This document shows, piece by piece, positions 1,138-61,307 of a stretch of 61,421 nt of DNA. Position 1 is the first letter of the stretch; every line of letters starts with the position of its first letter. A program made the position numbers and the translations under genes. This stretch comes from Chrysochromulina tobinii (taxonomy: Eukaryota): NCBI GenBank assembly GCA_001275005.1, contig JWZX01002777.1:1-61421 (forward strand). The letters run 5' to 3'. The notes under the pieces are model-generated. The model made no database searches, was not told where the DNA came from, and saw only the letters and a program-made list of their open reading frames with translations.

Positions 1138-4100
1138 CGCAGCAGCGATTTCGTCCTGTTTGGTGAGCTTGCAATGCATGCACCTGTGATGAGGGAGGCA
1201 ATCAGAGGTCATCGGAGGTTATCAGAAGCAATCAGATCGGCTTCAATTTGGAGCTGGTGCGAATCTCGCCCAAATCTCGCTCAAGCATATCTCGTTCATA
1301 TCTCGTTCATATCTCGTTCATATCTCGTGCATATCTCGCACCCGGCGCACTCCGCCTTGGCGCACGTATACTGATTGCACCACGACTCGCAGGTGGGCGC
1401 CTCCACAGTCACAGTCACCGGCTCAAACGGGCTGTCAATGTTAGACCCCATCTTGAGCAGAGGTACGTCGGCGGGGTTGAGGTCGTACGTCCGAAGGAAG
1501 TCGATGTGGGGGGCGAGGGTATCCGAGCTGCTCGTCACAAAGGCTTCGATTGTGCGTGGCAGATTGACGTCCCACACGTCCCCGCGTACCTGATGAGGGA
1601 GGCGATCCGACTGATGAGGGATGCAATCAGCTTCGATTGTGCGTGGCAGATTGACGTCTAATTGACGTCTAATTGACGTCCCACACGAGGGAGGCAAGGG
1701 TACACTTAAGGAAGGCCCTTTGGAAGGCACTGAAGGAAGGCAATTAGGGAAAGCGATTGGGGGAGGTAAGTCGCGTTCCACACGCCCCCGCGTACCAAAA
1801 ACTCATTGTAGATATTGTTGCGGTGGGCGCCAGCACGACGCTCGTTGGTATCCCTGAGATGAGAGGACACAATCAGAGAGGAGTGAGGTCAGAGACTCGA
1901 ATCAGGGATTCGTCCTCGTGAGATGGGATTCATCCTCGTGAGATGGGATTCATCCTCGTGACGGTCGTCGCGCGCTATGGGATTCGTCAGGTTTCGTCAC
2001 ATAGTCACCTCGCGAGGTAGACCCCAATGCTCGGCACGTCAGATTCTCAATCAGATTCGTCAGATTCTCACCTGGCGAGGTAGACCCCAATGCTCGACAC
2101 GTCCCACGTACAATCGGACGGGAGGGAGCCTGGACCGGTAGGGTCCGCGTCAGGAGGGAGCACTGGGCAGGAGCTGCGACAGTAGCCGCCGCAGTCGCCC
2201 GGGGCTGCGCATTTGATGACGGTGACGCCCGGCCGGAAAATGATCCCGCCCGGGCAACCAAATAAGGAATCGTGGAGCGTTTTGCCGTTAGGGTCGCCAG
2301 TCGGGGCGCGGTTCTGGAGGCTGAAGACCTGATGAGGGAGGCCATCAGGGGGGCAATTAGTAGGCAATTAGTAGGCAATTAGGGAATGCGATTCTATAGG
2401 CACTCTTGCTATTCGGGAGGCTAACAGACCTGCTGAGGGATGGATACGGAATCAGATGTGAGGGATGTAATCACCGGAGGATGCGATTAGGGTGCGTTCA
2501 GCCAGGTGTAAGCGAGGTATGTGTAAGCGAGGTATCAGCGAAGGAATCCGAGGTGCCATCCAAATAAGGAATCCGAGGTGCCATCCAAATAAGGAATACG
2601 AGGTGCCATGAGAGAGAGGGAATGGGGGTGGAGCGGATCCTATGCGGTTCCTCTGAAGCCGCGCACATACATCGCAATCAGATCCAATCAGATCCAATCA
2701 GTGTACAATCAGTGTGCAATCAGTGTCCAATCCGAGATGTCTCCCAATCCACACCCACCATCTCAGTGCCCAATCAGTGTACAATCAGTGTACAATCCGT
2801 GTCCAATCCGAGAGGTCTCCCAATCCACACCCACCATCTCAGTGTCCAATCAGTGTCCAATCAGTGTCCAATCAGTGTCCAATCAGTGTACAATCAGTGT
2901 ACAATCAGTGTACAATCAGTGTACAATCAGTGTACAATCAGTGTCCAATCCGAGATGTAAGAGATGTACATCTCCCAATCCACACCCACCATTGAGGCTG
3001 AGACGAGGCAGCTGCCGTGAGCAATGTCGGAGCAATCGGAGGGTGCAATGAAGGCCCGAGACGTATGGCCGTCGAAGCAGTGCACGAGCACGCCTGATGA
3101 CGCAGGCAATTAGGGAGAGGAGGCACAGAGGAGGCACTCACGGGTGAGGCAATTAGGGACCGATTGGCAAGTAGGGAGGCACTCACGGGGGAGGCCATCA
3201 GGAAACCAATGAGCAATTACCTGCATCTGGCAGGGCGCCCGAGGCCGTCCACTGCTCGTAGGGTGCCCTCTGGTAGCGTCGGTTGATTCGCTCGGCTACG
3301 CTCTGCGGACTCTCCGGGGGCGGTGAGGGGGATGGCAAGGGTGGTGGCGAGGGCAGAGGGGGTGGCGTCGGGCACGGCGGCGGCGGCGGCGGCGGTGAGG
3401 GTCGGGGTGAGGGCGGCGGAGGGGATGGTGGCGGCGAGAAGGAGGGCCAGAGTGGAGGTGGCGGCGACGGCTCCACGGCCACTGCGGCGAGCTGGTGCTC
3501 CGAGTTGGATGCCCCAGCACCAGCACCAAGCCGCCGCACCCCGAGTACGAGCCAAGGCCCGATTAGGAACACGAGGGTGAGCAGACCGAACCCAATCGAC
3601 CTCTTTCGCTCGAGGTGCTGGGGGTCTTTGCTGGAGAGCTTGCTGAAGAAGACTTCCGCAGACGATGCCACGCGATCATACTTCATGTTGGTCCGGGTCC
3701 CCTCTGCATCATCCTCGACGTCGTCGTCCTCGTCGTCGTCCCGCGCTGCAGATCCGCCTTCCTTATTTGGAGCCCATGCAGACCCGCCTTCCTCAACAGC
3801 CCCACCAGCTGCGTCCGAGGCTTCGTCCGCTTCTTGATGCCGCTTCCAGGCACGCCCTACCACGGTGTTCTCGCGCAAATTCGGCGTCAGAACATAATCG
3901 AGGTCCTGCAGGTCCGCAAGTTCGGAGGAGCGCATGAGCTCTGACGTCGCCTCGGGTCTAGCTGACGAACGACCGATCGCGCGCGCGAGCAAGGCACGCT
4001 CGCGCTCGGATAGGTTCGAGCTCTTCAGATGCTCTTGTATGAAGTCTTCGGCCATCGAGAGTCCCTCGCCAAGGGGCGGTGCGCCATCCATTTCGTGCGA

Positions 4101-4486: not shown

Positions 4487-7271
4487 CTATCGAAGCTCAT
4501 CATGCATCTCCACCTGAGGAAGCGGGCTCGTGCCTGCTGCATCTCGCGCTGTCTCGAGCGCTGCCGCGCTCTGTCTCCCTCCGATGCGTACCGGCTTCAG
4601 AGTGCCCGTCGCCACCTGTCGGTCATCCGGCGCTGCGGCTGATTGCGGTTGATTGCGTACCGGCTTCAGAGTGCCCGTCGCCACCTGTCGCTCTTCCTGA
4701 GCTGCGGCTGTGGTGGCTGTTGTTACGGTCGCTGCTGCGGCTGCCGCTCCGGCTGCGGATTCGCGCGGCCTCGCTCTCCTCGTGTGATCTCGTGTGATCT
4801 CGTGTGATCTCGCTATCCTCGCAGCTTTGGATGTTGGAGCCTTGATTGGATTTTTGATTGGAGCCTTTGACAACGACAACGACGATGATGATCCGGCCCT
4901 TGCCGCCCTTGATGATGATGATGATGATGATGATGATGACGATGATGATCCGGCCCTTGCCGCCCTTGCCGCTTTGGAGTTTGGAGCCGTCGGGTCGACG
5001 TTCTTCTCGAGCGCCTCGGCTGCCTTCGCGTCGAGTCCGAGGGCCGAGGACGCCATCGCTAAGCGCTCTTGGAGCAATGCCTCGGGCAGGCTGCCAACGC
5101 AATCAACCGCAATCAGACGCAATCAGCCGCCATCGCTAAGCGCTCTTGGAGCAATGCCTCGGGCAAGCTGCCAACGCAATCAGCCGCAATCAGCCGCACT
5201 CAGCCGCAATCAGCCGCACTCAGCCGCAATCAGCCGCACCTGCCGAGGGTGCTTGGATCGAGCTCCTTCAAGCGGGCGAGCGCGGCCAACATCTTCTCCG
5301 ACTCTTGACGAAGCTGCTTGCGACGGCGCTCGAGCGACGCGCGCTTCGCCTCGAACACCTGATTGCTTTGGTCATCAGCACCCGCTCGGTTCGCCGACGC
5401 GCTCGCGCCGTACTGAGCGTTGCTGGCCGCGCTGCCGGTGGCGGCGCGCGCCGTCGCGGGCGGAGCGCCGTCCTGAGCGCAGGCGGCCGCCGGGATGAGA
5501 ACGTCTAACGCCACGTGTTCCATCAGAAGCGCCCCGTCGAACGCGCGTCGCACCTGCATGCAATTCCCGATTCAACCCCAAATCAGGTCTGCATGCAATT
5601 CCCAATTCAACCCCGAATTGCAGACCTCATTGGACAGCTAAGGAAGCCAGCGATCATCAGTGGTCATCAGCATTCATCATCAGCATTCATCAGTGGGCAT
5701 CAGCATTCATCATCAGCATTCATCAGTGGGCATCAGCATTCATCAGTGGTCATCAGCATTCATCAGTGGACAGCTAAGGAAGCCAGCGGTCATCAGCGGT
5801 CATCATCTCACCATATGATCACATGGTGGCAATCAGCATTCATCAGTGGCCATCAGCATTCATCAGCGGTCATCATCTCACCATATGATCACATGGTGGC
5901 CATCAGCGGCACTCCGGCGCAGTCACCGTGATCACGTCGCCCGAGCGCACGCCCGTGACGAGGAGCTGATCGGTCGCGTTTGGGACGAGCGAGCCACGTG
6001 GATGGAGCGTGCCCACGCGGCGCTCGGGACGGCGCGCGCCCCAGACTGCCACGTGGGCAGCGGAGCTGCCGATGAGCTGCACCATGACTGACGAAGCACA
6101 CCGGGGAGGGTGCTCAACATCAGTGCTCATCAGGCGCAATCAGTCGCAATCAGTCGCAATCAGTCGCACCTGACGAAGCACACCGGGGAGGGTGCTCAAC
6201 ATCAGTGCTCATCAGGCGCAATCAGTCGCAATCAGTCGCACCTGACGAAGCGTTCGCGGCATCGACTCCAAAGCTAGCGTGGAGCGAGGTGCGTTGACGA
6301 AATGCGACTTCGTCACTCGCGTTGCACCGGCACGACGCGCGGGCGAACAGCGTGTTCGCGTACCAGTCGAGCAGCAATCTCCCTGAATCTGGCGCCTCAT
6401 GATCCGAGAGCATCTCGCGCGATCTCCAGCGGTGGCCTAGAAAGGAAGGTTGCTGCAGCCGGGCGCCGGGCATCACCACACCGAATGCATGCTCCACACC
6501 GAGTGCATCGACCCATAAAAGGCGCGCGGGCACCTGTGGGGAGAGTGGGGCGCCGTGGTGAGCACTCGCATGCAGACCGAGCCCATCGACCCATAAAAGG
6601 CGCGCGGGCACCTCGGCCTCGTTGATGACGGCGATTGGCGCCGGCGCGTTCGTCAGCTGCGGCAGCGTATGCCATGGTGCTGGCGCCGTCGGGCTGGCGG
6701 CGGCGGCCACAGGCATGCTATCCGCGTCGCATGCATGCTCCGCCAAGCCCGTGCACGCTCTCATGCTGCACGGCCGTTGTCGCGTCGCTTCCTCGCACGC
6801 GGCCGAGCAACTGTGCATCATGAACGCAGCATTCGCCTCGCACTCGCCCACTGCAGCCCACTTGACGCACTCGGACTCGACGGCAGGCGGCGGTGGTGGA
6901 GGCGGTGGAGGCGATCTGGTGCACGCGTCGGCGCAACCTTCAAGCATGAATGCGCTGTTGCGAGTGCACTCACCGGCATTGGCCCACGACTCGCACTGGC
7001 ATGCCGTGGAGCACGACTGGCTCATGAAGTTCCTGTTGTGGGCGCACTCGCCCGCGGCGGCCCAGGCTGCGCACGCGCTCTTCGTGTAAACTGGCAGCGG
7101 CGAAGGCGCAGGCGACGGTGGTGGCGCTGCGTTGGCTGCTTGTGCGCACTCGTCGGCGCAACGCACGCGCATGTAGTCGGGATTGCGGGTGCACTCTCCT
7201 GCGGCTGCCCAGCGGTCGCACTGGGCTGCAACCGATGTGATGGCCACGAGCGTGATCGGCAGCGCTCGCAT
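4487..7271 (-). CDS. Secreted/ER protein with four ShKT-like domains, VHL-beta-like domain, coiled coil and C-terminal HDEL-like signal; multi-exon
   Basis: Signal peptide MRALPITLVAITSVAA, then four C..WA.AGEC..N..(Y/F)M...C...C repeats and VINE...LLWVD..G.E....V.PG...Q.SF.GH.W. Introns at 6611-6534 and 6241-6088 keep the frame. The terminal exon ends EMHDELR*. Confidence 0.75.
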
Positions 7272-10181: not shown

Positions 10182-13100
10182 ATGCTAGCCGACCCTGGCT
10201 ACCACGAACCTGACTACAAGAGCAGGGTGTCGAGAGCAGCAGTGCTCGCCGTCACGGGGCCAGGCAGGCGCACTCAGCGCTGGGCGAGGCTCGTCACGCG
10301 CTGGCTCGAGGGGAAGGGCGGCAAAGCCGACCTCTTCCAGGCGGCCGTTGAGAATCTCGCGCAGGCAGATGAACGGCCCAGCTCGCCCAGCCTTGACGGC
10401 GGCGACGAGTTCTCCACTGTCCCGCTCCATTCACATTCACTCCAAAGCTTGCTCGGTGACCTGGATGCCCATCTGATTGCAAGCATTGGCCTCCCGCATC
10501 TGATGGCATGCAATGGCCTCCCGCATCTGATGGCATGCAATGGCCTCCCTCATCAGGTGACCTGGATGCACTCATCGTCGAGGTGGACGAGCAACGGCGC
10601 ACGCTGGCACGGCGCAAGCAGCAGCCGCGCGAGCACTCGTCGGCTGAGGCTCGGTGGACGCACTCATTGGCGGCGTGGACGCACGAAGCGGACGAGCTGC
10701 GCGCGGCGCGCGATGCGGCGTGTGCCGAGGGCAACGCGGCGTGCGCGGAGCGCGATGCGGCGTGCGCGGAGCGCGACGAGGCGCGCGCCGCCGTGGACGA
10801 GGCGGACGGGCAGGTTCTGCAGCTGAGCGTCGCGACGGCCGAGCTCTCCTCCGAGCTCGCAACCTCCGAGCTCGAGATGACGGCGCTCCGTGCGCACGCC
10901 TCTGAGCTCCGACGGCAGATCGCAACCTCCGAGCTCGAGATGACGGCGCTCCGTGCGCACGCATCTGAGCTCCGACGGCAGATCGCAACCTCCGAGCTCG
11001 AGATGACGGCGCTCCGCGCGTCCGCCGGCTTCGTCAACGAGACGAACGGCGGCCTGGATGCGGCCGGGCGCCGTGAGGAGCACTTGCATGCTGGGCGCTT
11101 GGCCTCGGATGCGGCCGGGCGCCGTGAGGAGCACTTGCATGCTGGGCGCTTGGCCTCGGATGCGGCCGGGCGCCGTGAGGAGCACTTGCATGCAGGGCGC
11201 TTGGCCCTGGATGCGGCCGGGCGCCGTGATGAGCACTTGCATGCAGGGCGCTTGGCCGTTGCTCGCGAAGCCTCGGCGCAGCTCGCGACGGCGCTCGTGG
11301 CGGCCGAGGCGGCGAAGGCGGAGGCCAGGGGGGCGAGGGCGGAGGCGGAGGCGGCCAAGGCGGAGTCGCGCGCCGTGGAGAGCACTTGCATGCAGGCGAG
11401 GGCGGAGGCGGAGGCGGCCAAGGCGGAGGCGCGAGCGGCCTCCGCGGCGGCGGCGATGGCGGAGGCTAGGGCGGAGGCGATGGCGGCGGCCATGGCCAGG
11501 GCGGAGGCGGAGGCGACGGCGGTCAGGGCGGGCGCCGGTCAGGGCGGTCAGGGCGGGTGCATGGCGCCCAGCACGGCGCCCAGCCACGCGCCCAGGATGG
11601 CGCCCAAGACGGTGCCCAGCACGGCGGCGTACACGGGCGCTCAACACGACGCCCCGAGGTCGCCCGCGGCCGAGGCGGCGAGCAGACGAGCCGCGGTGCC
11701 TAATTTGGGAGAGGCGAGCTCCAACCCTAATTTGGGAGAGGCGAGCGCTAACCCTAATTTGGGAGGGGCGAGCAGACGAGCCGCGGCGCCCGAGCCACGG
11801 TGCGCCCACGACGGCGCGTCGAGTGCGGCGACCGAGGGTGAGGTGACGAACGCGTTGCGGCGGGCGCTCATGGAGAGTGAGGCGACGAACGCCCTAGTGC
11901 GCCGCTGATTGCGATTGATGGCGATTGATGGCGAATGATGATGGTTGATTGCGAGTGATGGCGATGCATCAGATTGCGATCTGGATCTTGCCGTATTTGT
12001 ATGGAGGTTCCTCGGGTGCTCACCACGGCGCGCGCCCTCGCCTCCTCCCTAATTAGGTACGCCGCTGCTATGCGACCGACAAGCTCGGCCTCGCGCTGGA
12101 TGCAAGCGCGGCGGGAGCGCTGCGGCGGGCGTGGCACTGCTGGTGGGTCTGCGCCTGCGCGCTCGAGGGCGAGATGGCCTCTGACGAAGCGGACCGGCTG
12201 CGCGCCGCGCTCACCTCCGAGCTCGAGCTGAACGCAAAGCTGCAGGAGCGGCTGACGAACCTCGAGCTCGCGCCGAGCTCGGCTGACGAACCTCGAACTA
12301 AGGACGGACGCCTTAATTTGGGTCGGGCGCCGTCTCGAGCGCCGGGCGCTCCGACCGAGCCGGCGCCGGCGGTGCCCGATACGGCGCTGGCGCCCGAGAC
12401 GGCGCGCGGTGGCGGTCTGGTGTTCAAGTCCGAGTCGGAGTGGCAATCTCGCGAGCGCGAGATTCGCGAGATGCGCCGCCAGCTCGCGGTGGCTCGTGCG
12501 CACATCGAGCAGCTTGAAAAGGTAGCTTTGATGGCGGCTTGATGGTGGCTTGATGGTGGCTGATGGTGGCTTGATGACGGCTGATGACCCCTCCGATGGC
12601 CACCCTGATGACACGTCTGAGTGCACCTGATGGCCTCCCTCATTGCACCTGATGGCCTCCCTCATCGCACCTGATGGCCTCCCTCATCGCACCTGATGGC
12701 CTCCCTCATTGCACCTGATGGCCTCCCTCATCGCACCTGATGGCCTCCCTCATCGCACCTGATGGCCTCCCTCATCAGGACTTGTCGGCGGCGCAGCGGC
12801 GCGCAGACCAGCTGGTTGCCACGTCACAACGCGAGCGATCTCGCGCGAGCTCGCACGTGGCCTCACGCGCCTCGACGCCGTGCCCTTCCGACGATGGATC
12901 CCATCCTTATTTGGGAGGGTCGAGCTCCAACCAGACCATGGCGGCGTTGCAAGAGGAGGTAACGTCCCTCCGTCGGCTCTGTGCCTTCAGGCGTAACGAG
13001 GTGTGAACAGCGCCCTCAGATTGGCGTCAGATTGCGTCAGATTGCGTCAGATTGCGTATGATTGCGCCCTCAAGCGTAACGTGGTGACCGTCTGATTGCC

Positions 13101-15844
13101 TCTCTGATTGCCTCTCTCATCAGGTGACGGCGCCACGGTTCGCGCGATGGCGCGTCCTCGTGAGCGCCATGAAGCGCAAGCGCTCGGAACAGCGCCTCGC
13201 CGTCGCACTCGCCGCCCGCCGCCCGGCCATCGCCACCGTCGATGAGGAGGCAGTGCGCCAACTCCTCCAGGTGATTGCCTGATTGCGGTCTGATTGCGCC
13301 TGATTGCGCGTGATTGCGCTTGATTGCGCCAACTCCTCCAGGCAAAAGCCACGGGCCTCGAACCTAATCTGGACACCTCACCTCGCATGCGAGTGCTCAC
13401 CACGGCGCCATACGACCTCGCCTGGCATGCGAGCGCTCACCACGGCGCCCGTCCCCTCCCCCTCGTCCCTCCGTCAGGCAAGGCTGGGCGCCGCGCGTTG
13501 CCGAGCGATCCGACCGCTCGTGATGCTCACCACGGCGCCGCGCGAGGCGTGCGCGCGCTCACTATGGCGCTGGAGAGCTGCGGTTGTGGCGAAGGCGGCC
13601 GGCGCTGCCGCACAGCTCGCCGCCGCCGCCGCCGCCGCCGCTGCCGTCGCGCCGGCGGAGGCGGAGGCGGCGGCGATGAGAATGGAGCTGGTCGAGCTTC
13701 GCACTCAACGGCAACGCGAGTCGGAGACGCAGGGGATGCTGCAGGAGGCGATCCAGGTGATTAAATACCTCATCAGTCTGATTACCTCCCTCATCAGGCT
13801 GATTGCCTCCCTCATCATGCTAATTGCGGGTGATGCCCAGACGCCTCTGATGACCTCTGATGACTTCTGAGGGCCTCTGATGACCTCTGATGACGTCATT
13901 GAGTGTCTCCCTCATCAGGCGGGCGATGCCCAGACCCGTCGCGTGCTCCAGCTGCAAAAGGCGGTGCGATCTCCCTCGATCTCCCTTGATGGCCCTTGAT
14001 TTCCACCCGCCCAACCGCTCGCGACATGCCTGCAATCAATGGATTGCGATGGATTGCGCTTGATTGCCTCCCTCATCAGGTGGGCGCCACCCGCCGAACC
14101 CTCGCGGCGTGTCTGCTCCGCGCCTCCCTCGCCGCCGCCGGCAGAGGCCGGTGTGCGCATGCATTGCACCGCTGGGCGGTCGCGGTGCATGCGCACGAGC
14201 GCATCCGAACGGTGCTCGACGTGCGCACCGCGAACAAGGCAGCCGAGGTGCGATATCCCTTGTTTGCCATTGATTGCCCTTGATTGCTCGACGTGCGCAC
14301 CGCGAACAGGGCAGCAGGCGTGCCGTTGTGTGCTGGCTGGCTGGCCCAGTAATTGGCATGCTGATTGCCTCCCTCATCAGTCTGAGTGCCTCCCTCATCA
14401 GGCTGATTGCCTCCCTCATCAGGTGGCGCGCTCCACGGCGCGCACCGCCGAGGGGATCGCCAAAGATGCGCAGTCCGCAGCGAGTCGCGAGGTCGATGTG
14501 ATCAAAGGCAAGTTGCACACGGTCGAGAAGCATCACGCTCCCTTGATTGCCTCACTCATCAGGCCGATTGCCTCCCTCATCAGGCAAGTTGCAGACGGTC
14601 GAGAAGCAACGCTCCGCACTTCGCGCCGAGGTGAGCGCGCCTTGATTGCACTTGATTGCACTTCGCGCCGAGGTGAGCGCGCCCTCGCTCCGTCAAGCGG
14701 CCGTGAATGCAAGTGCTCACCACGGCGCCCCCCCTCCTTTGCAGGTGAACGCCCTAACTGCCGAGCTCGAGGCCGAGAAGCGCCGAGCGGTGAGCCTGAT
14801 TGCGTTCTGATTGCGACTGATTGCGTTCTGATTGCACTCTGAGAGCGTTCTACATACGCATCTGATGGCATGCAATGGCCTCACTCATCAGGTGAGCGTG
14901 CAGGAGGAGCACGCGCACAAGCTAGGCCTACTCGAACGCACCGCCGCAGCGCATGAGAAGCGAGCACGGCAGCTGGACGTTGTGGTGCGCAAGCGTGTGC
15001 CCCTGATTGCACATGATTGCACCTGAATGCACCTGATTGCACCTGAGTGCACCTGAGTGCACCTGATTGCCTCCCTCATCAGGTGGGCGAGCGTGCTGAG
15101 CTCGAGGCGCAGCTCCGTGCACTCCATCGAAAGATGCGACAATCCTCCTTGCTCCTCGCCCCCCCCACGTCCCCCGGCGCTCACCACGGCGCCTCGACCG
15201 TCCCCTCGCCCGGGGGCTCCCTCCCGGGCGCTCACCACGGCGCCTCGACCGTCCCCGGCGCTCACCACGGCGCCTCGCCCGGGGGCTCCCTCCCCGGCGC
15301 TCACCACGGCGCGACCCCGACGGACGCGAGCGCCGTCGTGAGCGCCGCGGCCGCGGACGGCGTCGGCGCGCGCCGAGCGCTCAATCTCGGACAAAATCTC
15401 GGACCGAATCTCGGACCGAATCTCGGTGGCGCGCGCGTCGTCGCGAGCACCGCCTCCTCGCCCCCCCGCACGTACGTGCCCGCGTCGCCCCCACGCACCG
15501 CCGCCCAGGACGGCGCCACCGGCGCTCGAGACGACGCGCCGTCGCCCAGGACGGCGCTCGCGGCCGAGCGCACCGACAAGGAGCAAGCACTCGCGCTGCG
15601 CACGCGCGCCGTGCGCGACTTGAAGGCGTGCCGGGACGCGCTCGCGCAGGCCAACGGCCGGCTGGACGAAACCCAACGGCTCCTCGCGCAGGCCAACGGC
15701 CGGCTTGACGAAACCCAACGGCTCCTCGCGCTGGCCAAGCTGCTCTTGCATGCGCGCAGCCGCGTCGGACGTCCCGCGGCGCTGCTACGCATGCTCGGTG
15801 CGCTCCGAGACTGGGCTGCGGCGACGCGGACCGCGCCGTGGTGA
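10182..15844 (+). CDS. Large multi-exon coiled-coil protein
   Basis: Successive Ala/Glu/Arg-rich coiled-coil exons are joined by introns ending ...CTCATCAG (10556, 12778, 13123, 13918, 14079, 14422, 14891, 15082). Intron 10456-10556 joins LLG|DLDALIVEV in frame. Confidence 0.65.
12623..12778 (+). repeat. 22-nt intronic tandem repeat x7 ending in the splice acceptor
   Basis: GCACCTGATGGCCTCCCTCAT(T/C) starts at 12623, 12645, 12667, 12689, 12711, 12733 and 12755. Only the last copy is followed by AG. Confidence 0.95.
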
Positions 15845-29921: not shown

Positions 29922-31734
29922 TTACCCCCGTGGGAGTGGAGAGGCGGCAGCGTCAATCGGCTGCCCGTTGGCGCCCGCCGCGACCGGCGCCGGCGCCGCC
30001 AACTGTTCGATCCGGTTGATGAGCTTCGCGAGGGCCTCGGCCTGCGCGTGGTGCATCTCGCGCAGCGCTTGCATATCGGCGGCCACGCGCTGCTCGAGTG
30101 CGTCCATCCGGCGCACCATCGTCGACATCGTCCCCGGGTCCGACAGGGATTCCAAATTGAGGAGGCGTCGCTGCTCGCGCTGCCGCTGCACGCGGTGCAG
30201 CAGCATGAGGCGCACATGGCGCGTATTGAGCGCTGTGGTGGACGCCGCAAGCGCTGACGAGGCAGTGCGCCGCATCACGCGGCGACCCCGGAATGACGGA
30301 GCGGCGGGCGCCGTCGCGGGCGCCGTCGCGGGCGCCGTCGCGGGCGCCGTCGTGGGTGCGTCGCCCGAGGTCAGGCAAAGGTCACCGACGAGAGGTGGCA
30401 CACGCTCCACACTCAGCGCTCGACGCGTCAAGGCGCCTCGCACGCGCCACACTTGCTGCACGAGTAGGGCGGCGGCCTCCATCTCGACCTTCTCGAGCTC
30501 GTTGTCGAGGACGCGTCGTAGTAAGGTCGTTTCGAAGTTGCTCAGTGAGAGACTGTCAGTGACCACCATCGACGTCAGTGCGAGCAGCACGATGCCGCAC
30601 ACGCATGCGAAGGAAGACACCACACGCCCAATCGGATCGTTCGGCGTGTAGTCGCCGTAGCCGACGGTGGTCATCGTGCCAATCATGAACCTGATGAGGG
30701 AGGCGATCAGGGAGGCGATCAGCGGGCACGTCCCAAACTCATCAGTGCGACGAAACGCATCAGTGCGACGAAACTCATCAGTGCGACGAAACGCATCAGT
30801 GCGACGAAACTCATCAGTGCGACGAAACTCATCAGTGCGACGGGTCGGAGCATGCGAGCACGAACCATGCCGAGTTGCCGATCTTGCTGAATTCAGGGTT
30901 GCAGTCGCGCTCGATCACGTGGACCCAATACGTGAGCGTCAGGTATGCATAGAAGAACATAACGCAGATGAACTTGAGAGAGTGCCTCGCGTACACGAGC
31001 CGAACGGTCGTACCCCAAGTGAGAAACGGCAGACCGGCCTCACGTCGCAGCATCTCTCGATACTGAAAAATGGTGCTAAAGTCGCGCACGATGCGCAGCG
31101 CCAGGTACGGCAGGCGCAGGTTGATCGCAAACGCGAGCTGCTCGTACCAGAGCGCCGAGACCCACGGTACAGGCTGCACCGCCAGCAAGATCGCCTCGAT
31201 TAGGAAGACCTTGAGCGTGGGACCTCGCCACAAAGACGGCGGGCGCATGGCGACCTGGCTCCCGGGCTGCGCGCGGTACACGTGCGCCAGAGGGTCGCGC
31301 GGCACGAGCGACACGCTGCAGTATGCCTTGTACTTGACATCGTAGTACGAGTACAGGACCAGCCACAAGAGCACCGTTAATCCAAAGTTGACGAAGCACA
31401 GCGGCCGCGTGTACGTTTGATTGAAGGTGACGCCGGGATCGCACTCCAACGGGTCGACCGCAATGCCATCCTTCGTGTAGTTAGTCGGTATCTCCTCGAA
31501 ACTGAGCTCGAGCGAGGTGTACGCGAGTGCGAGCTGTAGCGCCGAAAGAGCAAACAGCGCCAGGTTGCGGCGCCGGAGCGGCTTCTCAAAGCGGGCCGCA
31601 TTGGCAATCGACTCGAACTTCCGAGGATGGCGCGGGTAATCACCCACAAAGGAGGTCCCAGCATCGAGCAACGGCGCTTCCAGGAAGCCCTGCATTGCTT
31701 TCCACGTCCAGACCCTAGAGCCAAGAAACAACAA
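29922..31734 (-). CDS. K+ channel, SK/KCNN-like; intron 30865-30691; start uncertain
   Basis: TM helices. Splicing joins NSAW|FMIGTMTTVGYGDYTP..PIGR. An IQ-like AALLVQQVWR motif and a C-terminal coiled coil follow. Confidence 0.85.
30736..30842. repeat. Intronic 18-nt tandem repeat x6
   Basis: Tandem units of (T/G)CATCAGTGCGACGAAAC. Confidence 0.9.
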
Positions 31735-32055: not shown

Positions 32056-35000
32056 CTACAGGCCGTAGTGCCATTCGCTCGGCGCGCTCTCGCACAAGCA
32101 GCGCCTAGGCTCCACGCGCTCCTCGGCGGCCAGCCTCCGATTGGCGAGGATGCGCATCAATGTGGGGACAACGCCCGTCTGGTGCGCGCGCTGCGCGGCG
32201 GGCGCACACGAGGCGGGCGGTACCTCCTCCCCCCAGCTCATGTGCGTCGCCGCGCACGCCATCTCGCAGCGCATGCGCGTCACGTCAGCGTCAGAGACCT
32301 CAGCGAGGGCACGTCGTAGGCGCTCCCCGAGGGTACCTGATGAGGGATGCAATCAGAGCCCATCAGGGAGGCACTCAGAGGCCATCAGAGCCCATCAGAA
32401 TGGCACTCAGAGTGGCACTCGGAGGCCATCAGGGAGGCACTCAGGGAGGCCATCCGATGTACCGAGTGGCGCGTCGGCGACAAAGAGGGAGAAGTTTCGC
32501 CACGGTACGAAGGGTTCGAGAGCGCGGACGGAGCCCTCGGGAGCGATCGAGATCGGGATGCACCCCTGGCGTACTGCACTCGCCGAGCGACCTTCCCAAC
32601 CGTTGCCACGTCCATAGGGTGCAAGGCAGAAGGTGGACGGTGTGGGCATGTGGGGCGAGAGGAAGCCGTAGCGCGGGTGCTCGGGTTCGGTCGAGACGAG
32701 CGCCTCTTCGGGCAAGAGCCTCACATTACGCTTCCGGTGGTCCATGTTATTTGTGTCTGTCACGAGGGAGCCGAGGGGAAGCTCAACGTCAGGTCATCAA
32801 GGATGATTAAGGATGATGAAGGATGATGAAGGATGATGAAGGTTCGTCAGGTTCGTTGATGACCTGTCACGAGGGAGCCGAGGGGAAGCTCGGCGTCGGA
32901 GGCGGTCGAAAGCCAGCGGCGAACGCGCACGCCGCTGCCGCCGTGCCGCCCCATGCCGCCGCCCGACGCCTGCCCCGCCCAGGTGACGACGAAACTACGA
33001 TTGTTCACAGCGGGCCCCCAGGGCGAGCTCGCGAGCGAGATCGGGACGAGCTTGCAATCTGGCTGGCTGGATGGTCGTCGTCGCCGCCGCCGCGCCGCCG
33101 CCGCCGCGCCGCAGCAGCGATCATGCGCCGACGGCCCTCCCTTGAGATCATGTGTCGGTGGGAGGACTACGTCTTTGCCAGGTACGAAGCCGACCTCCGG
33201 ATTACCCGTAAGTGTGAGCGCGACAAAGTGTCGTGAGGATCCCTGCGCTTAGCATGCATCGGGTTCGAATCAGAGGTCATCCACGGCCGTCCGAGGCCAT
33301 CAGAGGCACGCACCTGCGACGCATCGACCTCGGGCGAAAGGGGCGGCTGCATGCGCGGCCTCGGCAAGTCCATGGCCATGTCTCCCGGAAAGAGCAGCAG
33401 ATGATTAGGCTGCGCCCGCCGGAGCGAGGCATTGAAGTACGGCCACGTGGCGCGTACGTAGCCAAGCAACGCTGCCACGCCCATTCGGCCGCGCCCACCT
33501 GATGAGGGGTGCAATCAGTTGTCATCAACGTTCATCAACCGACGCAATCACGTCCATTCGGCCGCGCCCACCTGATGAGGGGGGCAATCAGTGGCCATCA
33601 GCGTTCTCATCAGCCGTCTCAATCAGAGGGGCACATTCGAGCGCCCACCCCAATGAAACGGCAGCGGCAAGTAGTAAAAGTCCGCAAGCTCCGGATTGGA
33701 CGACCGGTGTGGGGAATTGAGGAGCGCTCGGCCGAGGACCTGATGAGGGGGGCAATCAGTGGCACTCAAGTAGAAGCGCTCGGCCGAGGACCTGATGAGG
33801 GGGGCAATCAGTGGCACTCAAGTAGAAGCGCTCGGCCGAGGACCTGCGCGAGGATCTCTTGGCCCGTGATCGCCGTGTGCATGCGGACGAGCTCCGCAGG
33901 TAACTCATAGACGTATACGGTAGGGCGGGGTGGCGCGGCTGCAATGCGCGGCGCGGGGGCTGCGGACAACGCTCTAGATGCCCAGGACAACGCTCTAGAT
34001 GCCCCCTCTGCACGCGTGAGATTTCGGACCTCCGGCGTCGCGTGCGCCAGCGGGGCCACCTGCCCTACCGGCCTCCACTCTGCCGTCGTCGGCATCATCA
34101 TCTGGCGTAGCCGCCGTCTTGAGCGCCGTCTTGAGCGCCGATCGGAGTCTGGCTGGCTGGTATACACGATGCCAGACGTCCAGAGCCGACGCAGGTACGC
34201 ACGCAGGTAGCCACGATCCGAGTTGCGAACCTCGAGGATACCCTCGAGCACCTGATGAGGGATGCAATCAGCATGCAATCAGCATGCAATCAGCATGCAA
34301 TCATCGATCCGAGTTGCGAACTTGGAGGATGCCCTCGAGCAACTGATGAGGGTGCCCATCAGCATGCACTCAGAGACCTATCACTGATGAGGGAGCCCAT
34401 CAGCATGCACTCAGAGACGCAATCGGAGGCACTCAGTGGACGGATGCCGGCACAAGCGCCGTCCTGAGCACCTGCCGCAGAGTGCTCCACGGCAGCGTGA
34501 CCGCGTGATCTCGCGCGTCCCACACCGACACATCATCCTTCGGACGCGGTACTGAGAGCTTGGCACCGCCTGACGAGACTTGCCAATAGAGGATTGCCTG
34601 CTCGAGCGACGTGAGCGCGCGAAAGTACTTATCCGGCCACACGCCCTCGAAGCGATACGGGCGCACCTGATGAGGGATGCAATCAGCATGCAATCAGCAT
34701 GCAATCAGCATGCAATCAGCCCGTACTCATTCGGCCACACGCCCTCGAAGCGATACGGGCGCACTTGATGAGGGAGGCAATCAGCATGCGCTCATCTGTC
34801 AGACAACCTTCGGGGGGCACTTGATGAGGGAGGCAATCAGCATGCGCTCATCTGTCAGACAACCTTCGGGGCGCACCTCAACCAACGAGGCGCCACGCAG
34901 CATGAAGAAGGCGTTTGCCAGACCCGCACCGTGAGTGCCGACAAGCACGTCGGCGACCCGCGCGGCATGCACATCGCTGCGCAAGCTGCCTAATTTAGAA

Positions 35001-36542
35001 GGCGACCCAAACTCGTGAGCACTACACAAGACGCGCGTGCGGTGCGGCCACTTGGAGGGCGGCGTATGCTCACCTGATGAGGGTGGCCATCAAGGGTGAT
35101 CAAGGGTGATCAAGGTTAATAAGTGTTAATCAAGGTTAATCAAAGGTTAATCAGTGTGTGTGCACATAGCGGTGCAGCAGCTCGTGAAAGGTTCGTCAAA
35201 CCAGAGAAATCAAGGGTACTCAATGGTAATCAATGGTACTCGAAGGTAATCAAGGGAACTCGATGGTCATCAAGGGAACTCGATGCTCACAGCGGTGCAG
35301 CAGCTGGTGCAGGTTCGTCAAGCTTCGCGAGAATTGGGTCCGCGTGCGATTGACGAACACGACGCGCAGCACGGGCGGTCCCGTGGAGGCAGGCTGTGGA
35401 AGGCGGGCTGTGGAAGGCAGGCTGTGGAAGGCGGGCTGTGAAGGCGAGCTGTGGAAGGCGGGCGCCGCCGCGGGCGCGGGCTCGCCGAGCGCCGTTGCCA
35501 CCGGAACCAACGGGCCGTTGGCTGTGAAGGCCCGTTGGCTGTGAAGGCGGGCTGTGGAAGGCGGGCTCGCCGTTGCCACCGGAACGGGCCGCCCGCCTTC
35601 CACAGCCCGAGCGACGCGTTGGCCTGCTCGCCACGGCGCCATTGGCGGCCCGTATGGGTCAAAGGTGGATCTGAAGTTACACACGAGCACGCGCTCGTAG
35701 CAGGTAGAAGCACAGGGCTGCTCTAATGGACGCCGGCGCCGGCGTGCACCGCCCTCCGAGTCGCGGCGGCGTCGGGTGCGTTTCTCACCCATCTCGTCGA
35801 GCCTCCGGCGAGCGGCAGCGTCGTCGCGGGCACTGGGTAGGCGGCTCTCACCCATCTTGTCGAGCCTCCGGCGAGCGGCAGCGTCGTCGCGGGCACTGGG
35901 AAGGCGGCTCTCACCCATCTCCTCGAGCCCCCGGCGAGCGGCAGCGTCGTCGCGGGCACTGGGAAGGCGGCTCTCACCCATCTCGTCGAGCCTCCGGCGA
36001 GCGGCAGCGTCGTCGCATTTCGGAGCGACCTCGCGAACGGTACGAATGGGCTGCGTGCTCAGGCTGCCGATCATACGATAGATCGGATTCTTGGAACGCG
36101 GCCATGCGACCAGGTCCGGGCGCAGCTGCACGTGCTCGTTGATCAAGCCCGCCGACAGTAACTCATCGATCGGCACCAGCGACGACACGAATGAGTCGGC
36201 GAAGCTGAACGCCCATACCGGTATCCAGACGAGAGGCACGCATCGCGACAGCTGCTCCGCCTGGCGCAATAGGAGCGAGGCCGCAGTGGATCCGGTCGCG
36301 GGTGGCCGCATCGGATGAAGCTGCGCGAGCGGAAACGTGGCGTGCGAGCCAAACTGCGAGCGCACGATCATCGAGGTTGCGATGCGCAACGCTGCATTCG
36401 CGTCCGGACCAGGTTCGTACGGCAGGATCGTGCCGTTGAAGAAGCATAGACGCCGAAGCACCTCGCAGCGGTGACGATGCCGAGACGAATTCACCAGCCC
36501 GGCGACATCAATCGCGGCGGCGGCGCACGATGAGTCGGCCAT
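32056..36542 (-). CDS. Fused glycosyltransferase: GT61 (DUF563) domain + exostosin GT47 domain; multi-exon
   Basis: GT61 motifs RVVFVNR and ADVLVGTHGAGLANAFFM..GASLVEVRPY. GT47 motifs VYVYELP, LLNSPHRSSNPELADFYYLP, WPYFN and FCLAPYG.G.GW.GR..SAVRQGCIP. Exons join in frame across introns 34876-34667, 34471-34252, 33843-33740 and 33648-33499. Confidence 0.8.
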
Positions 36543-38350: not shown

Positions 38351-38526
38351 GAACAGCGAGCCCTCGCCCGGGCGCGCGCAGAGCGCGGTCAGCGGGCGTT
38401 TCAGTCAAATACCGGTACCGGTAAAAAGACACCGGTATCTCAAAAACCTGCCCGACGCGCAACGCCCTCTCCGCTCCGCTGAGCCTCGATCCTCTGACCG
38501 ACCTCACCTTTCGGACACCATTCAGC

Positions 38527-45268: not shown

Positions 45269-45291
45269 TTCACACCTCTTGTGCCCTTCAT

Positions 45292-47778: not shown

Positions 47779-48141
47779 CTGCTGCTGCTGTGAAACATGT
47801 GTGAAACACACAACGCGCGCGCTCTCCGGACCCCCAAGCTGACGTCGTGGCCGACACAGCCTGCTATTACACAGGCCGTTAATCGCGTTACTGTAGATGG
47901 TACCCGTATACAGCACAGTGCCACGATCAAGTTCGTTAAATTGCCCACATGGTACCGGGTAAGACGCACAGCCTATGAACAGTACCGGTAAAAAGACACC
48001 GGTGGAGCCGGGACTAACACGGGACACACACGGGGCGCACACGGGCAGTGGGATCACACTATAGACGAAACCTCACAACCATCCCATGCAACCATCCGGA
48101 ACCCACCAACGCACCCACACGCACGACCGGCACGACGACCG
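47779..48141 (-). repeat. Modular upstream element (modules 1, 2 and 3)
   Basis: 48128-48062 matches 45005-45056. 48046-47976 matches 36672-36601. 47839-47779 matches 61385-61334. Confidence 0.85.
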
Positions 48142-49819: not shown

Positions 49820-50268
49820 TGGGCTCGTCGTGCAATTGTCGTCGTGGCACCTGGCGTGGCGTCGATGAAGTGGGCAGCTCGCTTGCGTGGAAGAAGCACG
49901 ACAACAACAACAATACGCGATGGCGAACGAGGTGGCCTCGTCGCTCAGCGAAGCGGACAAGTGCTTGCCCCACGTAGGACCGGTGACGCGGCCACGCGGC
50001 TCCGGCCGCAAGTAGGTGCCGAAAGGGAGGGAGAGAGAGGTGTACCGGTAACTTCCCTTACCAAGCGACCGGTAAAAGACACCGGGGGGAGCCGGTACGC
50101 CGCTGTTCTGTGTGGTCCTGTTTTCGATTCACACACACACAGACCGGTACCTACACATTGGCAGGACCCCCTGAATTGCGGTGGGGGAATTTGTAGGGAC
50201 AAAGTGGGATTGGAATTGCAATTCACACCCGACATCCCTCTGTTTTCACTCCTCGTCGCCTTGAGAAA

Positions 50269-56117: not shown

Positions 56118-58267
56118 TCACGCGAATCTTGGATCGCGAAGCTGCGGCTGCGGCTGCTGCGGCGGCGGCTGTGCCAAGGGCATGCCGAGAGCCGCCGCCA
56201 GGAGGCGCCTCGCCCAGTTGCGTGGCACCACGGGCCCGCCTAGGGCGTCGGCGGAGCTCCATTGGAAGCGCGCGAACGGCCCGTCCTCGGGCGGCTTATA
56301 CGCGAGCGAGTACACCTCGACGCCATCTCGGTGCAATTCGAGAAGCAGATCGTCAAACGTCTGCAGCGCATCGGCCAGCTTGCGCTCGACAGCGTCCGTG
56401 CCAAACCAGGTCTCGCCGGTCGCCACCTTGTCAATGTCGAGCTGCGGACGCTGCTCGGCGACGAATCCCTTGAAGAGCGAGAAGATCTCGTCAATCTCCG
56501 CCTTGGTCTTGGCAACGTCCTTCGGGTCGACCTTTTTGAACGGCGTGAGTGTGCGCTTGTACTCGCCCGCAGTGACCGTCTGGAACTGCACGCCTTCCTT
56601 TTGGAGCCGCTCGTAGACGTTCGGGATCTCCGTGATCACCCCAATCGAACCGAGCACTGCAAACGGCGAGGCGACGATACGGTCGGCGACGCAGGCCATC
56701 ATGTATCCGCCAGAGGCCGCCACCTGCTCGACACAGACGGTCAGGTGGATCCCGGCCGCTTTGAGCCGCAGCAGCTGCGCCATGGCCAGGCCATACCCGG
56801 TCACCGAGCCTCCTCCCGAGATCAAGCGCAGGATTACCCGCGTCTCGGCCTTGGCAGGCGAGGGCGAGGAGCAGACTGCGGCGGTGGCGTGGATCACAGC
56901 GGTCACCTCCTCGCGGAGGGTCGCTACTTGTTGGGGCTCCGTGTCGCCCACGAAATCGAGCACAAACGCGCGCCGTCCACCGTGCAACCCCCGGCGCGCC
57001 AGCGGCACGTCCATAGGATCCCACGAAGTAGGCGCCGCCACGAGCTTCGCCAACGCCTCGCGCGCCTCCCACGCCTCCGTGCCAAGCGCCTCCGAAGCCA
57101 CACGCAGAAACGAGGCCTCGAGCGCGGCACACTCACCTGATGAGGGGAAAATCAAAAGGGCACTCAAGGGCAAGGGTACGCAAGGGTCTTCAAGGATAAT
57201 GAGGCCTCGAGCGCGGCACACTCACTCAGAGCGTCCGATAAGTCGTCCTCTGCCCGCCGCATCTCCTTCATCAGCTTGCGAACCTCCTTCTTGGAGCGCG
57301 CCCCGTCGGAGCCGTCGGGCTGCCCAGCGCCGCCCATCAGGGCGCCGGCCGACGAGCCTGCGCCCCTTGACGAGACTGCGGACTTGGGCTCGCATGCCCC
57401 CCCGAGCTCGACGGAGATACTGCGCAGATCGGCGCGGGCGGCCTGGGCAGCGGCGGCCGGCTTGGCGGCTTTGGTGCGCCACTCCTTCTCAGCCGCGGCG
57501 ATGCCGGCAAGCGCCGCCTCGCCCACGTCGCCCAGCTCGTCGGAGAAGCGTCTCGAGAGACTGCTCCTCCGCTGGGTGCGCGCGGCCTCGGTCTTCGAGA
57601 TCGTGCTCGCCTCGATCGTGTACGACATGGACGAGAGCTTGTCAGAGAGCGACTCGATGCGAATGTACTCCTTGGACGGAGCAAAGCCGGCCACACCCGA
57701 GCCGCTGCCCTTCCCGAACAGCTTCCTTAGGAGCCCGCCGCCTTTGCCGTCCAGAGCCTCGTCATCCTTCTCGTCGTCGTCGCCTCCGGCAGCCACTGCA
57801 GTGGCAGCGAGGACCACGGCCGCAGGCACGCCCCAATCGATGACACGCTCGACCAGCCGGCTGCCCGTGCTCTGCGCTGCTGGGCTTGTCATCACGCTGA
57901 GCATGCCTTGGGCCACGGCCTGGAGCGCATTCAAGGCGAGCGACGAGCCCTGTCTCAAATACAGTGGCATCACCGCCAGAATCCGCCATCCATACGCAAC
58001 GACGAGCGCCGCACTAACAGCTGTGGCAGCGAGCTTGAGAAGTATCGTTGGCTTCTGGAGGTACGTGATGAGCATCTCAGCAGCCGTGGGCGTATCCTTT
58101 GCGCCAGAGTATGCTGCCCGTTGCTCCGGAGTGCGAACGCTCATGGCCACGGGCATGGGGCGACGTGCGCGATGAATGGCTGGCCTCGTCAAAGGCATGA
58201 TCGCAGTGCGCCTCAACATAAATGCGCTGCAACATGTGGCCAAACACATGAAAAAAGGCTTCATCAT
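56118..58267 (-). CDS. S49 family serine peptidase (SohB/SppA-like), probably plastid-targeted; intron 57225-57137
   Basis: LRLISGGGSVTGYGLA, VAASGGYMMACVAD.IVASPFAVLGSIGV, TAGEYKRTLT and VATGETWFG. The N-terminus looks bipartite. Confidence 0.92.
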
Positions 58268-58379: not shown

Positions 58380-58413
<34 letters not shown>

Positions 58414-58489: not shown

Positions 58490-61307
58490 CTAGCCAAACC
58501 ATCCCTTGGACACTCTCTGGCTCGCGCGCTCCTCACGAGCGCGCGCCACGGTGGTCACCTCGCTCGCCGTCAGGTGCAGAAGTGTGGCGACCACAGGGAA
58601 CATGGAGTGGTGGTCCTCCGTCTCCATGTACTTGAGGATCACGTTGCGGAGGTACAGCCAGTCGGCGTCGCCTCGAGCACTCGTGACAGCGCCGCCGGCG
58701 GCTGGCTCAGCTCGGCGCTGCTGCTGCTGCTGCTGCTTGAGGCTTGCCACTTCGGCGCGCAGAGCGCTCGCCTCGAGTTTCGTCAGGGCTTCTCCCGCCT
58801 CGAGCTCGCGCACCTGGTTCAACAAGGCGCCAAACGCGACGCCGTCGGCCAGCGCGCGCGCCTCGAGCTCCTTCAAGAGCGCCTGCTGAGACTGCTCGAG
58901 CTCGACGCGAGATTGCGGCCACTCGCTGCCCTCGGCGCCGCCCTGACGAAACACATTGAGCGAGTCCGAGCAGCCGACGTCCTCCCCCCCGAGTCCGAGC
59001 CGCATGCGCCCGTGCGACTCGGCCCACCTCGTCCTCATTCAGCTGGAGGCACGTCGCGAGCGCGGGAAAGAGGTCCGCATGGTTCTTCTCGTCCATCTGC
59101 AGCAATTGGAGCACGAGGCACTTGACGTAGTCCATCGAGGCAATCAGAGGCAATCAGACGAGGCAATCAGGAGGCAATTGACGACACTCACCTGCAGCAG
59201 TTGGAGCACGAGGCACTTGACGTAGTCCACCGAGGCGCCGCCGCGGCGCGAGCGCATCTCGAGCTCGCGCATCTCGCGCCGCAGATTCTCATACGCATCG
59301 TCCGCGCTCGCGAGCCGAGCTCGCAGCTCGGCCAGCTCGAGATGGTGATCTCGCATCTGGGCATCGCGCATCGCCTGCTGCTGCGCGAGCTGCATCAGGC
59401 CCGAAGTCGAACTGAGCCCACTCCCGATGTAACCACTCCCAATGTCGGTCTGAACTGGCGAGAGGAGTGACAGTGGCGGGGCGACGAGCAGGGAATGGGG
59501 AGGAGCCGCCCGCGCCGGCGTCTCTGGCGGTGTCGTCGCCGCCGCCGCCTCGGCCGTCGCCGCCTCGGGTGCCGCCGTCGACGACGACGCGCCTCTCGCT
59601 GCTGCCGCTCCCGCTGCTGCCGCCGCCGCTGCCGCCTGCGCCGCGTCGCTCAACGAACGCTCAGCGGCGGCGATGCGTGCGGCTGCCTGTTGATGCATCT
59701 CGATGCGCTCGACCTCGTGCCGCGTCAACGCCTCCCGTAACGCACTCTCAGCCTTCTCCGCTCGGCCCTGCGACTCAGTCAAGGTGCTCTTCAGACGCCC
59801 CAGCTCCTTCTCCTTGTCCTCCATGAGCTTACGCGCCTTCTGACGCACCTGCAAGAGCTCGCGGCGAAGCGCGCCCACTGTGCGCAGGGACCCCTCGTCC
59901 GTCGCCTCCTCCTCCTCGAACCGCGCTGTACTGGGCACCTCAACGGGCGCACCGCGTGGAAGCCCAGCGCCGGCCTCCGAGGACCGCGGGGCGCCGTACT
60001 GAGCGCCTGCCTCCGAAGGCCGCGGTGCCGCCGCCGCCGCCAGAAGCGCACTCACCGTCGCCCGACTATCGCTCCACGCCCTCTCGAGAGCGCTCACCTG
60101 ATGAGGGGTCGTCATCAGAGGTCATCAGAGGTCATCAGAGGTCATCAGCGGTCATCAGAGTCCATCAAGCGCCAATCTCGAGAGGCCAAGCACCGATGAG
60201 AGTGGCACTCAGACGCAATCAAGGGTCATCAGAGTCCATCAAGCGCCAATCTCGAGAGGCCAAGCACCGAATGAGAGAGGCACTCAGACGCAATCGAGAA
60301 CCCATATCGAGGCCACGCACCTCCGCACCGAGCACCCGCAATCGCACGTTGGCTGTCAGCAAGGCCGCGGGCTCCGCCTCGGCCGCCGCCGCCGCCGCCG
60401 TCGCCGCCTCCGTCGCCGCCGCCTTCTCCTTAAGATGCAGCCGCGCTTCTGTTAGGAGCGATTTCATCTTCGCAATCTTCTCGCGCTGAGCCGTCTCCTG
60501 CGCCTGCCAGCGCGCCGTCTCCTGCGCTCCTCCAGGGCCGCGCTTGGTCAGAGACGCAATCAGAAGAGGCAATCAGAAGAGGCAATCAGAAGAGGCAATC
60601 AGAAGAGGCAATCAGAAGAGGCAATTAGCAGCACTAACCTGCTCCGCGCGAGCTTGGGCGTCCAGACGGGCGGCCTCGGATGCGCGGCGCACCTCCGCGA
60701 GCAAGTTCCGGAGCTCGCGTGCCTCCATCTCCGCCGCCGCCTGCGCCTCGGCCGCGGCGTTGCGCTCCTCGTGGAACGTGTCCACCTGACGGGAGAGCGC
60801 GCCTAGCTCCCGCTCAAATGCTTCCTCCTGTTGCTCCTTGGCGACCTGCAGAACCTGCAGGCTCTGCGACAAGGACAGCTCGTGCTGCATCTGCAGCGAG
60901 ACCTGCGACTGCAGCGGCGCGCTCTCTTCAAGCGCCGCCCCAAGCCGCCCCGCGCTCTCTTCAAGCGCGGCTTCGAGCCTGACCACCTCCGCGCGCAGCG
61001 CATGCTCCTGCGACGTCCAGCTCGCCGCCGCTGAGGCCGCACGCTCTCGCTCACCGTCAAGCTCCGCGGTCGTGCTCTTCAATTTGTCCTCGAGGGAGCG
61101 GATCTTTTTGACTGCGCGTTGCTTCACCTGCAGGATCTCATTCTCCAGCGCCTGCACGCGGCTTCCGGCATCATCAGCGATGGCCGTGGAGGCCGCAGAG
61201 ACCGGGGCGCTCTCGTCCGCAAATGCGGGTGCGCTCGCATCTGCGGGCTCGCTCGCGACTACCAGAGGCGCGCTCGCGTCTGCCGAGACCTGGTTCGCGG
61301 TATCCAT
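58490..61307 (-). CDS. GRIP-domain golgin-like coiled-coil protein; multi-exon
   Basis: Long coiled coils. GRIP-like motifs DYVKCLVLQLL...LFPALATCLQL and LYLRNVILKYM...MFPVVATLLHLT..E. Intron 59191-59097, with an apparent 1-nt frameshift at the C7 run 58984-58990. Confidence 0.75.

Follow-up and report, generated by a model that had tools for sequence, protein, structure and literature searches.

Introns with a stereotyped acceptor end and copied exon edges in Chrysochromulina tobinii and their probable origin in templated break repair

A stretch of 61,421 nt from Chrysochromulina tobinii (contig JWZX01002777.1), here called the window and the reference for all bare coordinates, carries a peptidase S49 (SohB/SppA-like) gene, an ion-channel gene, an exostosin GT47 region, a GRIP-domain gene and a TIR-domain gene. 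Many introns in the window end in nearly the same 20-mer, the acceptor cassette, and many hold a copy of the adjoining exon edge. The conjunction of an exon-edge copy with a near-identical intron end that is often shared nearby makes copy-and-paste repair, and not a known transposon, the likely source. We propose that many introns were probably made in this lineage by templated break repair, in which the end of an intron already present was copied next to a duplicated exon edge. Statistics are based on the window together with at least 132 loci (about 238 kb, numbered with L) from a metagenome scan for the cassette followed by GT. Public RNA contigs, public DNA contigs and protein relatives (numbered with P) provided further material.

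The initial annotation listed 20 acceptors ending in the near-identical 20-mer, and AG was found at every one of them as well as at 6534, where a second cassette ends the intron. Eighteen of the 20 differ from the 20-mer at 0-5 positions, while those at 57137 (8 mismatches) and 60098 (10 mismatches) fit it only over their last 10-11 bases. The 10-base core shared by the cassette is CCCTCATCAG. At up to 3 mismatches the window contains 34 cassette matches, against 0.01 expected from shuffles, and by inspection all 34 lie within introns in gene sense. Each of the 33 introns called by hand in the window runs from GT or GC to AG, and 20 end in the cassette. These acceptors had been described as spread over unrelated genes; instead they fall in about six or seven genes, and most window genes have no such intron. 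No acceptor was called between 35074 and 57137, a 22-kb gap reproduced by none of 20,000 random placements, a figure that is overstated because placement was random and some acceptors are unverified.

The second cassette occurs in both orientations within the gene at 10-16 kb, and in the loci 93 copies follow the sense of the first cassette and 8 the opposite. Antisense copies also lie between 33-nt blocks that are present in duplicate, and in tandem arrays (11334-11429, 11061-11260 and 15830-15945); read on that strand they look like a donor and an acceptor, and they may be either kept in frame or part of a GC-AG intron. The first cassette was not found in the viral contigs and prokaryote genomes searched, and an Rfam search gave no match. 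A phage-like contig (L133, 2700-3058) ends in filler of the Chrysochromulina type and the second cassette, possibly by chimeric assembly or integration.

Four exact exon-edge copies had been singled out, and all were verified at 28 (6611-6534), 25 (57225-57137), 13 (10456-10556) and 17 nt (33843-33740). The broader statement, that many introns open with the start of the downstream exon copied exactly, did not hold up as well, since only 5 of the 20 cassette-ending window introns start with such a copy of at least 10 nt. Over the full set, 54 of 175 terminal cassette acceptors have an exact exon-start copy of 10 nt or more in the 300 nt before them, compared with 0.14% of shuffled pairs and with 8/173, 1/171 and 4/169 for exon positions displaced by 30, 60 and 90 nt. 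A flanking-exon copy of at least 12 nt is present in 17 of the 33 window introns, versus 0 of 998 permuted pairs and 8 of 232 exon pieces. The edge duplications are thus well above background, contrary to what would have been seen had they been no more frequent than slippage predicts. When 20 redundant loci were dropped, 173 acceptors were left for an anchoring test, and 81 of them had anchored copies. Sixty-two of these copies are donor-like, with lengths of 9-55 nt in introns of 50-299 nt and frames that agree in 49 of 61 cases; their mismatches are evenly spread over the three codon positions (20/428, 13/419 and 19/416), as neutral decay predicts. The remaining 19 of the 81 follow cassette or filler.

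The proposal that one of the splice sites comes from a duplication of variable length and the other from a stereotyped insert was supported. GT or GC directly follows 19 of the 20 window cassette introns, and among 72 unseeded acceptors GT comes next in 53 and GC in 10, against backgrounds after CAG of 6.7% and 8.2%. In a mirror type the upstream exon end, copied over up to 45 nt, supplies the acceptor, and CAG precedes 10 of the 13 non-cassette window introns. Recruitment of one splice site from the target duplication is thus supported. Both sites clearly come from the duplicated segment at only one of the 33 window introns (4616-4684).

RNA contigs span the joints of 5091-5239, 10456-10556, 13757-13918 and 14790-14891 with 46-116 letters on the shorter side, and more weakly, with 20-26 letters only, those of 5554-5926, 6088-6241 and 14631-14744. 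Confirmation of the junctions by RNA, as the initial annotation had suggested, was partial: 7 of the 15 joints listed match predicted introns, four of them with long flanks, but among the joints listed only 3 of the 12 named acceptors between 1000 and 16500 are included. The other eight joints are short-sided and look like cross-matches between cassettes. The C. tobinii protein KOO26992.1 splices out 57137-57225 and is identical to the spliced translation over the aligned part, and homologues align gap-free over that junction. The intron at 5091-5239 is spliced in RNA yet has no cassette, so the cassette is unnecessary for splicing, and a strict acceptor consensus was rejected as an explanation of the shared ends for this reason. 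Assembly artefact was ruled out as a source of the duplications, because one independent DNA contig spans 30813-33752 with zero differences and 12903-16584 is matched at 100% by L013/L014 of a separate assembly. The individual introns are listed in Table 1.

Table 1. Introns called in the window, with the exon copies and insert ends they contain
Position	Strand	Feature	Structure	Splicing evidence
1590..1795	-	Cassette intron	22-nt diverged edge copy; 29-nt copy of exon 18-47 nt downstream	
4616..4684	-	Predicted intron, 69 nt	Both-sided duplication (31 + 6 nt) around antisense filler	From sequence
5091..5239	-	Mirror type without cassette	Filler at donor; acceptor from upstream exon end; internal 38-nt exon copy	RNA joint, three runs
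6088..6241	-	Mirror type	Acceptor is a 10-nt upstream-exon-end copy	RNA joint, short side
6534..6611	-	Second-cassette intron	28-nt exact exon-start copy	No RNA joint among those listed
10456..10556	+	Cassette intron	13-nt exon-start copy as donor; filler; cassette	RNA joint in X12, X15
12522..12778	+	Cassette intron	22-nt-period array; no edge copy	
13001..13123	+	Cassette intron	Diverged internal copy of exon-exon junction	From sequence
13271..13341	+	Mirror type	Acceptor is a 17-nt upstream-exon-end copy	
13757..13918	+	Cassette intron	Internal cassette repeats; diverged internal exon-start copy	RNA joint in X14
14248..14422	+	Cassette intron	24-nt exact upstream-exon copy; three tandem cassettes	
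14508..14583	+	GC-AG cassette intron	25-nt exon-start copy (24 matches)	
14631..14744	+	Second-cassette intron	Internal upstream-exon-end copy plus donor	RNA joint, short side
14790..14891	+	Cassette intron, local partner of 10456..10556	6-nt edge copy	RNA joint in X13
14985..15082	+	Cassette intron	Diverged 13-nt edge copy	
30691..30865	-	Intron, ion-channel gene, pore region		540-aa frame once removed; RNA contigs end at 30686, remainders unplaced
32337..32462	-	Cassette intron, exostosin GT47 region		RNA contigs stop at 32459-32462
32757..32863	-	Mirror type	Acceptor is a 28-nt upstream-exon-end copy	RNA contig stops at 32756
33499..33648	-	Cassette intron	Diverged donor copy; internal exon-start copy	
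33740..33843	-	Intron of two identical 52-nt units	Each unit: 17-nt exon-start copy and 35-nt cassette end	
34252..34471	-	Cassette intron	Last 52 nt identical to those of 34667..34876; diverged internal exon copy	
34667..34876	-	Cassette intron	8-nt edge copy; internal 33-nt exon-start copy	
35074..35290	-	Cassette intron	8-nt edge copy; internal upstream-exon-end copy	
57137..57225	-	Intron, peptidase S49 (SohB/SppA-like) gene	25-nt exon-start copy; drifted cassette	Spliced in annotated protein
59097..59191	-	Mirror type	Acceptor is a 45-nt upstream-exon-end copy (43 matches)	
60098..60320	-	Intron, GRIP-domain gene	End is the 10-nt core only	

Similarity between introns is limited to the last 20-60 nt and simple arrays and does not extend over the whole body. 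The bodies had been described as tandem reiterations of the cassette, which is correct for most of the filler, made up of degenerate repeats of the first 10 bases of the cassette in two common types, but they also contain copied exon material: the upstream exon end, exon stretches from 18-50 nt away, and exon-exon junctions (L098/L102 and 13001-13123). The number of repeats varies between alleles of one intron, which points to later slippage. Filler built of ATCTCG/CGAGAT units occurs in exons as well as introns (1261-1340, 4786-4815, 8280-8410, 8592-8670 and 15385-15425).

The ends themselves are shared locally, and this is the main observation that we add to the initial annotation. Over the 25 bases preceding the cassette, introns within one gene or contig are more alike than other introns (0 of 1000 permutations). 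Of the 124 acceptors with a neighbour in their own gene or contig, 28 have their best 3'-end match out of all 188 acceptors there, compared with a permutation mean of 1.3 and a maximum of 7 in 300. Such pairs include 10556/14891, whose last 35 nt are almost equal, 34252/34667, and introns of L017 and L064. In L064 a private 42-nt end is common to two introns 200 bp apart at different positions, each beside its own exon copy and with junction matches of 3 and 6 nt. Exon starts are barely more alike within than between genes (2.45 vs 2.35). A common-suffix test alone gave no within-gene excess (12.6 vs 13.6) because the seeds are exact by selection. The idea that one short master template was copied reiteratively was not upheld, given the allelic variation in repeat number and a template that often resembles the neighbouring intron.

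Templated break repair was the best fit among the options of the initial annotation, and we suggest the following course. A staggered break in an exon would be repaired with duplication of 9-55 bases of the exon edge, and beside it would be placed an insert copied from the end of an intron already present, in many cases apparently a neighbour within the gene. Where the duplicate starts with GT or GC it could serve as the donor, the insert bringing a branch-point-like CTGAT, a pyrimidine tract and AG, and splicing would restore the mRNA. In the mirror type a duplicate ending in CAG would become the acceptor and the insert would bring the donor. Other outcomes of repair would presumably be purged by selection. 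Slippage would afterwards expand units of 10-22 nt, and repeated events at one site could leave the extra exon and junction copies found inside introns. No autonomous element would be needed, and since every new intron would be a new template the process would feed itself. We infer the break, the enzyme and the template, which may be DNA or the gene's own pre-mRNA. Polymerase-theta-like end joining is our guess for the enzyme: in templated insertion by polymerase theta the insert is copied from nearby sequence, and the local sharing of ends and the local exon pieces agree with this. Antisense cassettes in L077 and L074, and the fact that splicing can do without the cassette, also speak for the account as a whole. 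A snap-back model was rejected, as it predicts inverted copies and the copies found are direct.

Conservation of intron positions in distant relatives, which would have told against recent gain, was not found at the three sites tested. At the SohB site (57137-57225) the relatives P0146 and P0148 run uninterrupted on contigs as long as 13 and 17 kb. A gamma-tubulin complex gene (GCP3, L051) has two cassette-intron sites, and both are uninterrupted in the P0174 cluster (6.7-23 kb) and the P0178 cluster (12-14 kb), and P0176 has a break five codons from the second site. In a midpoint-rooted GCP3 tree, C. tobinii has uninterrupted relatives on either side. The relatives' sequences are taken to be DNA from their long contigs and from other calls of the same collection that read into introns. 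Because relatives run through all three sites, gain is a simpler reading than loss.

Several points weigh against this account. The test of gain is small, three of three sites in relatives only 51-69% identical whose DNA origin is itself inferred. Six allele or paralogue pairs share intron positions and differ only in repeat number, with no intron present in one and absent from the other, and relatives at 95-96% identity retain the 57137 intron, so that the process has left an age series and has not been caught segregating. No anchored copy was found at 92 of the 173 acceptors, and 96 of the 124 with a neighbour lack a strictly best local match. Two end types recur over genes genome-wide, which suits a master template, and the local sharing could be explained by gene conversion between existing introns. 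Junction microhomology (0.79 vs 0.36) is inflated by the way the end of a copy is defined. The loci were selected by their seed, an exact cassette followed by GT, and donors were mostly called by hand. In L079 (468-1817) a near-identical spliced protein fixes five junctions and agrees with the hand joins except that two of the five donors are shifted, one of them because a 6-nt 'copy' is a natural exon repeat; copies shorter than about 10 nt are therefore not to be trusted.

A wider version of the same account, which we put forward only tentatively, would have most introns of the genome arise by this self-feeding, element-free route, with repair copying intron acceptor ends from DNA or pre-mRNA within a gene and a founder end written by telomerase. 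The foothold for telomerase, also additional to the initial annotation, is L053 (1069-1179, minus strand), where an intron is built from an 18-nt exon copy, mismatched at one base, and behind it a telomere array that passes in register into the last 10 bases of the cassette; the next intron has the same kind of end. It is plausible from this arrangement that the 10-base core was seeded by telomerase. The telomerase-like option of the initial annotation thus keeps one foothold, but telomere arrays are present in 1 of the 132 loci listed and not in the window, although the seed disfavours such introns. Pattern searches for telomere-type acceptors gave 0, 0 and 1 matches. Haptophyte telomeres are TTAGGG according to the available parts of PMC3622300 and PMC11347835, and the accessible text of PMC8287931 contains no haptophyte telomerase RNA. 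Rodent telomerase insertions may carry template-adjacent bases and have target duplications in 4.6-16% of cases, as given in the portion of PMC2246262 at hand.

Two further observations concern telomere-like sequence. A small circular-virus-like contig (L134, 1044-1155), which by our own reading carries a Rep-like gene, shows this anatomy although the replicon is unrelated: inside its predicted intron some 16 nt of the downstream exon start are repeated, and telomere repeats and AG come after them. A family of palindromic motifs that look like a telomere repeat fused with its own inverse (CCTAATTAGG and variants) is scattered over the window (12047, 11699-11760, 8946, 9115, 9406, 12313 and 12906) and over L002, L026, L058, L076 and L079, sometimes as an acceptor and sometimes apparently exonic.

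It is rather unlikely that a reverse transcriptase (telomerase, a non-long-terminal-repeat [non-LTR] or a Penelope-type enzyme) copied a master RNA into staggered breaks, its 3' end becoming the acceptor and the duplication the donor. Target-primed reverse transcription yields a fixed 3' end, a variable 5' extent and duplications of variable length, all of which are seen here, and the recurrence of two end types, the L053 array and the TTAGGG telomeres fit as well. The scarcity of telomere arrays, the private ends common to neighbours and the local exon pieces inside inserts argue against it, as does the position of all 34 window matches within introns in gene sense, judged by inspection. The window had been said to encode no responsible enzyme, and no reverse transcriptase family was found among the 43 window frames scanned, which, like the negative Rfam search, counts against this reading.

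We consider it improbable that the introns are old, their interiors rewritten by tandem duplication across existing acceptors and their ends homogenised by gene conversion between neighbours. Duplication across an existing acceptor does occur, as in the 19 anchored copies that follow cassette or filler, conversion would also yield local sharing, and the six pairs share their positions. Against this, all three tested sites are uninterrupted in relatives, GCP3 would need at least two losses per intron, and the donor itself is an exon copy at 10456 (RNA) and 57137 (annotation). A strict consensus does not account for the ends, since splicing proceeds without the cassette. Least probable, and already disfavoured, is a classical introner (a non-autonomous DNA transposon) that has since decayed: high copy number, one splice site from a duplicated target, introners reported for other Chrysochromulina genomes in the available part of PMC9860276 and a 5-bp inverted repeat in the cassette speak for it, but the duplications are 9-55 nt and not fixed at 3-9, introns with perfect duplications have no common body, and the cassette hairpin does not outscore its shuffled versions (z -0.83). 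On inspection of the intron ends, the only inverted repeat noted was the 5-bp one inside the cassette.

Other features were noted in passing. The TIR-domain gene has an ordinary-looking, pyrimidine-rich intron without filler or cassette (18470-18561), possibly of an older class. L079 (468-1817) encodes the C-terminal domain of a Lon protease, its short coding region being interrupted by six introns, and L033-L035 belong to a gene that is dense in introns and encodes a family A DNA polymerase domain. An ACCGGT-rich intergenic motif of very high copy number lies upstream of genes in both orientations (36600-36760, 38400-38440, 45170-45270, 47980-48040 and 50020-50100), with a summed DNA depth of about 27,000 at 36442-36708.

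How introns come to be gained in large numbers is a long-standing question, to which introner transposons are the main genome-scale answer so far. Many of the introns described here keep a readable record of their birth, namely the target copy, the insert and often the likely source intron, and searches that require whole-intron similarity would overlook them. Local self-templating would explain why intron-rich genes lie beside intronless ones. With a culture, a genome sequence and wild populations available, the alga lends itself to direct tests of the mechanism.

Our literature search, with most subscription journals outside its coverage, found no description of these introns, and none appears in the available parts of PMC4028052, PMC12480563, PMC8287931 and PMC8469720. 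The accessible portion of the C. tobinii genome paper (PMC4580454) gives about one intron per gene and contains nothing on intron structure. Among known systems, non-LTR target-primed retrotransposition likewise shows variable duplication, a fixed 3' end and a truncated 5' end, but copies outside genes in both orientations were not found on inspection of the window matches, and antisense cassettes were seen only in L077 and L074. The mammalian telomerase insertions ITS and TERC-ITS resemble L053 in combining a telomere array, a target duplication and a few extra bases ahead of the repeats; in the part of PMC2246262 consulted they are not described as making introns, and the likeness concerns one locus. 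Tandem AGGT duplication (PMC3443670, in part) also draws splice sites from duplicated exon and leaves the mRNA unchanged, and 4616-4684 fits it on both sides, but most introns here take only one site from the duplicate and the other from the insert.

Introners, as treated in the available sections of PMC9860276, likewise produce many new introns with shared sequence, one carried and one recruited splice site (the Symbiodinium example). The Chrysochromulina example there has a 4-bp duplication and a carried 5' site; C. tobinii was screened, and among the supplement rows listed its name occurs once, in the genome list. That the present introns are not classical introners, as the initial annotation held, agrees with our results, which include no whole-body similarity and 62 copies of 9-55 nt in place of short fixed duplications of 3-9 bp (copies shorter than 9 fall below the threshold). 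A close counterpart is intron gain at staggered breaks in Daphnia pulex (PMC4202315, reviewed in PMC3443670, both available in part), which has the same working principle. Repeats there are 4-12 bp and no shared insert is named in the accessible text, whereas here repeats of up to 55 nt occur, a stereotyped intron end forms the insert, and that end is often found in a neighbouring intron too. Edge repeats above background and empty sites in relatives (three of three) are found here as in Daphnia, and intronless alleles in none of the six pairs. The proposed mechanism would work like this known staggered-break route, with splice-site borrowing as in some introners.

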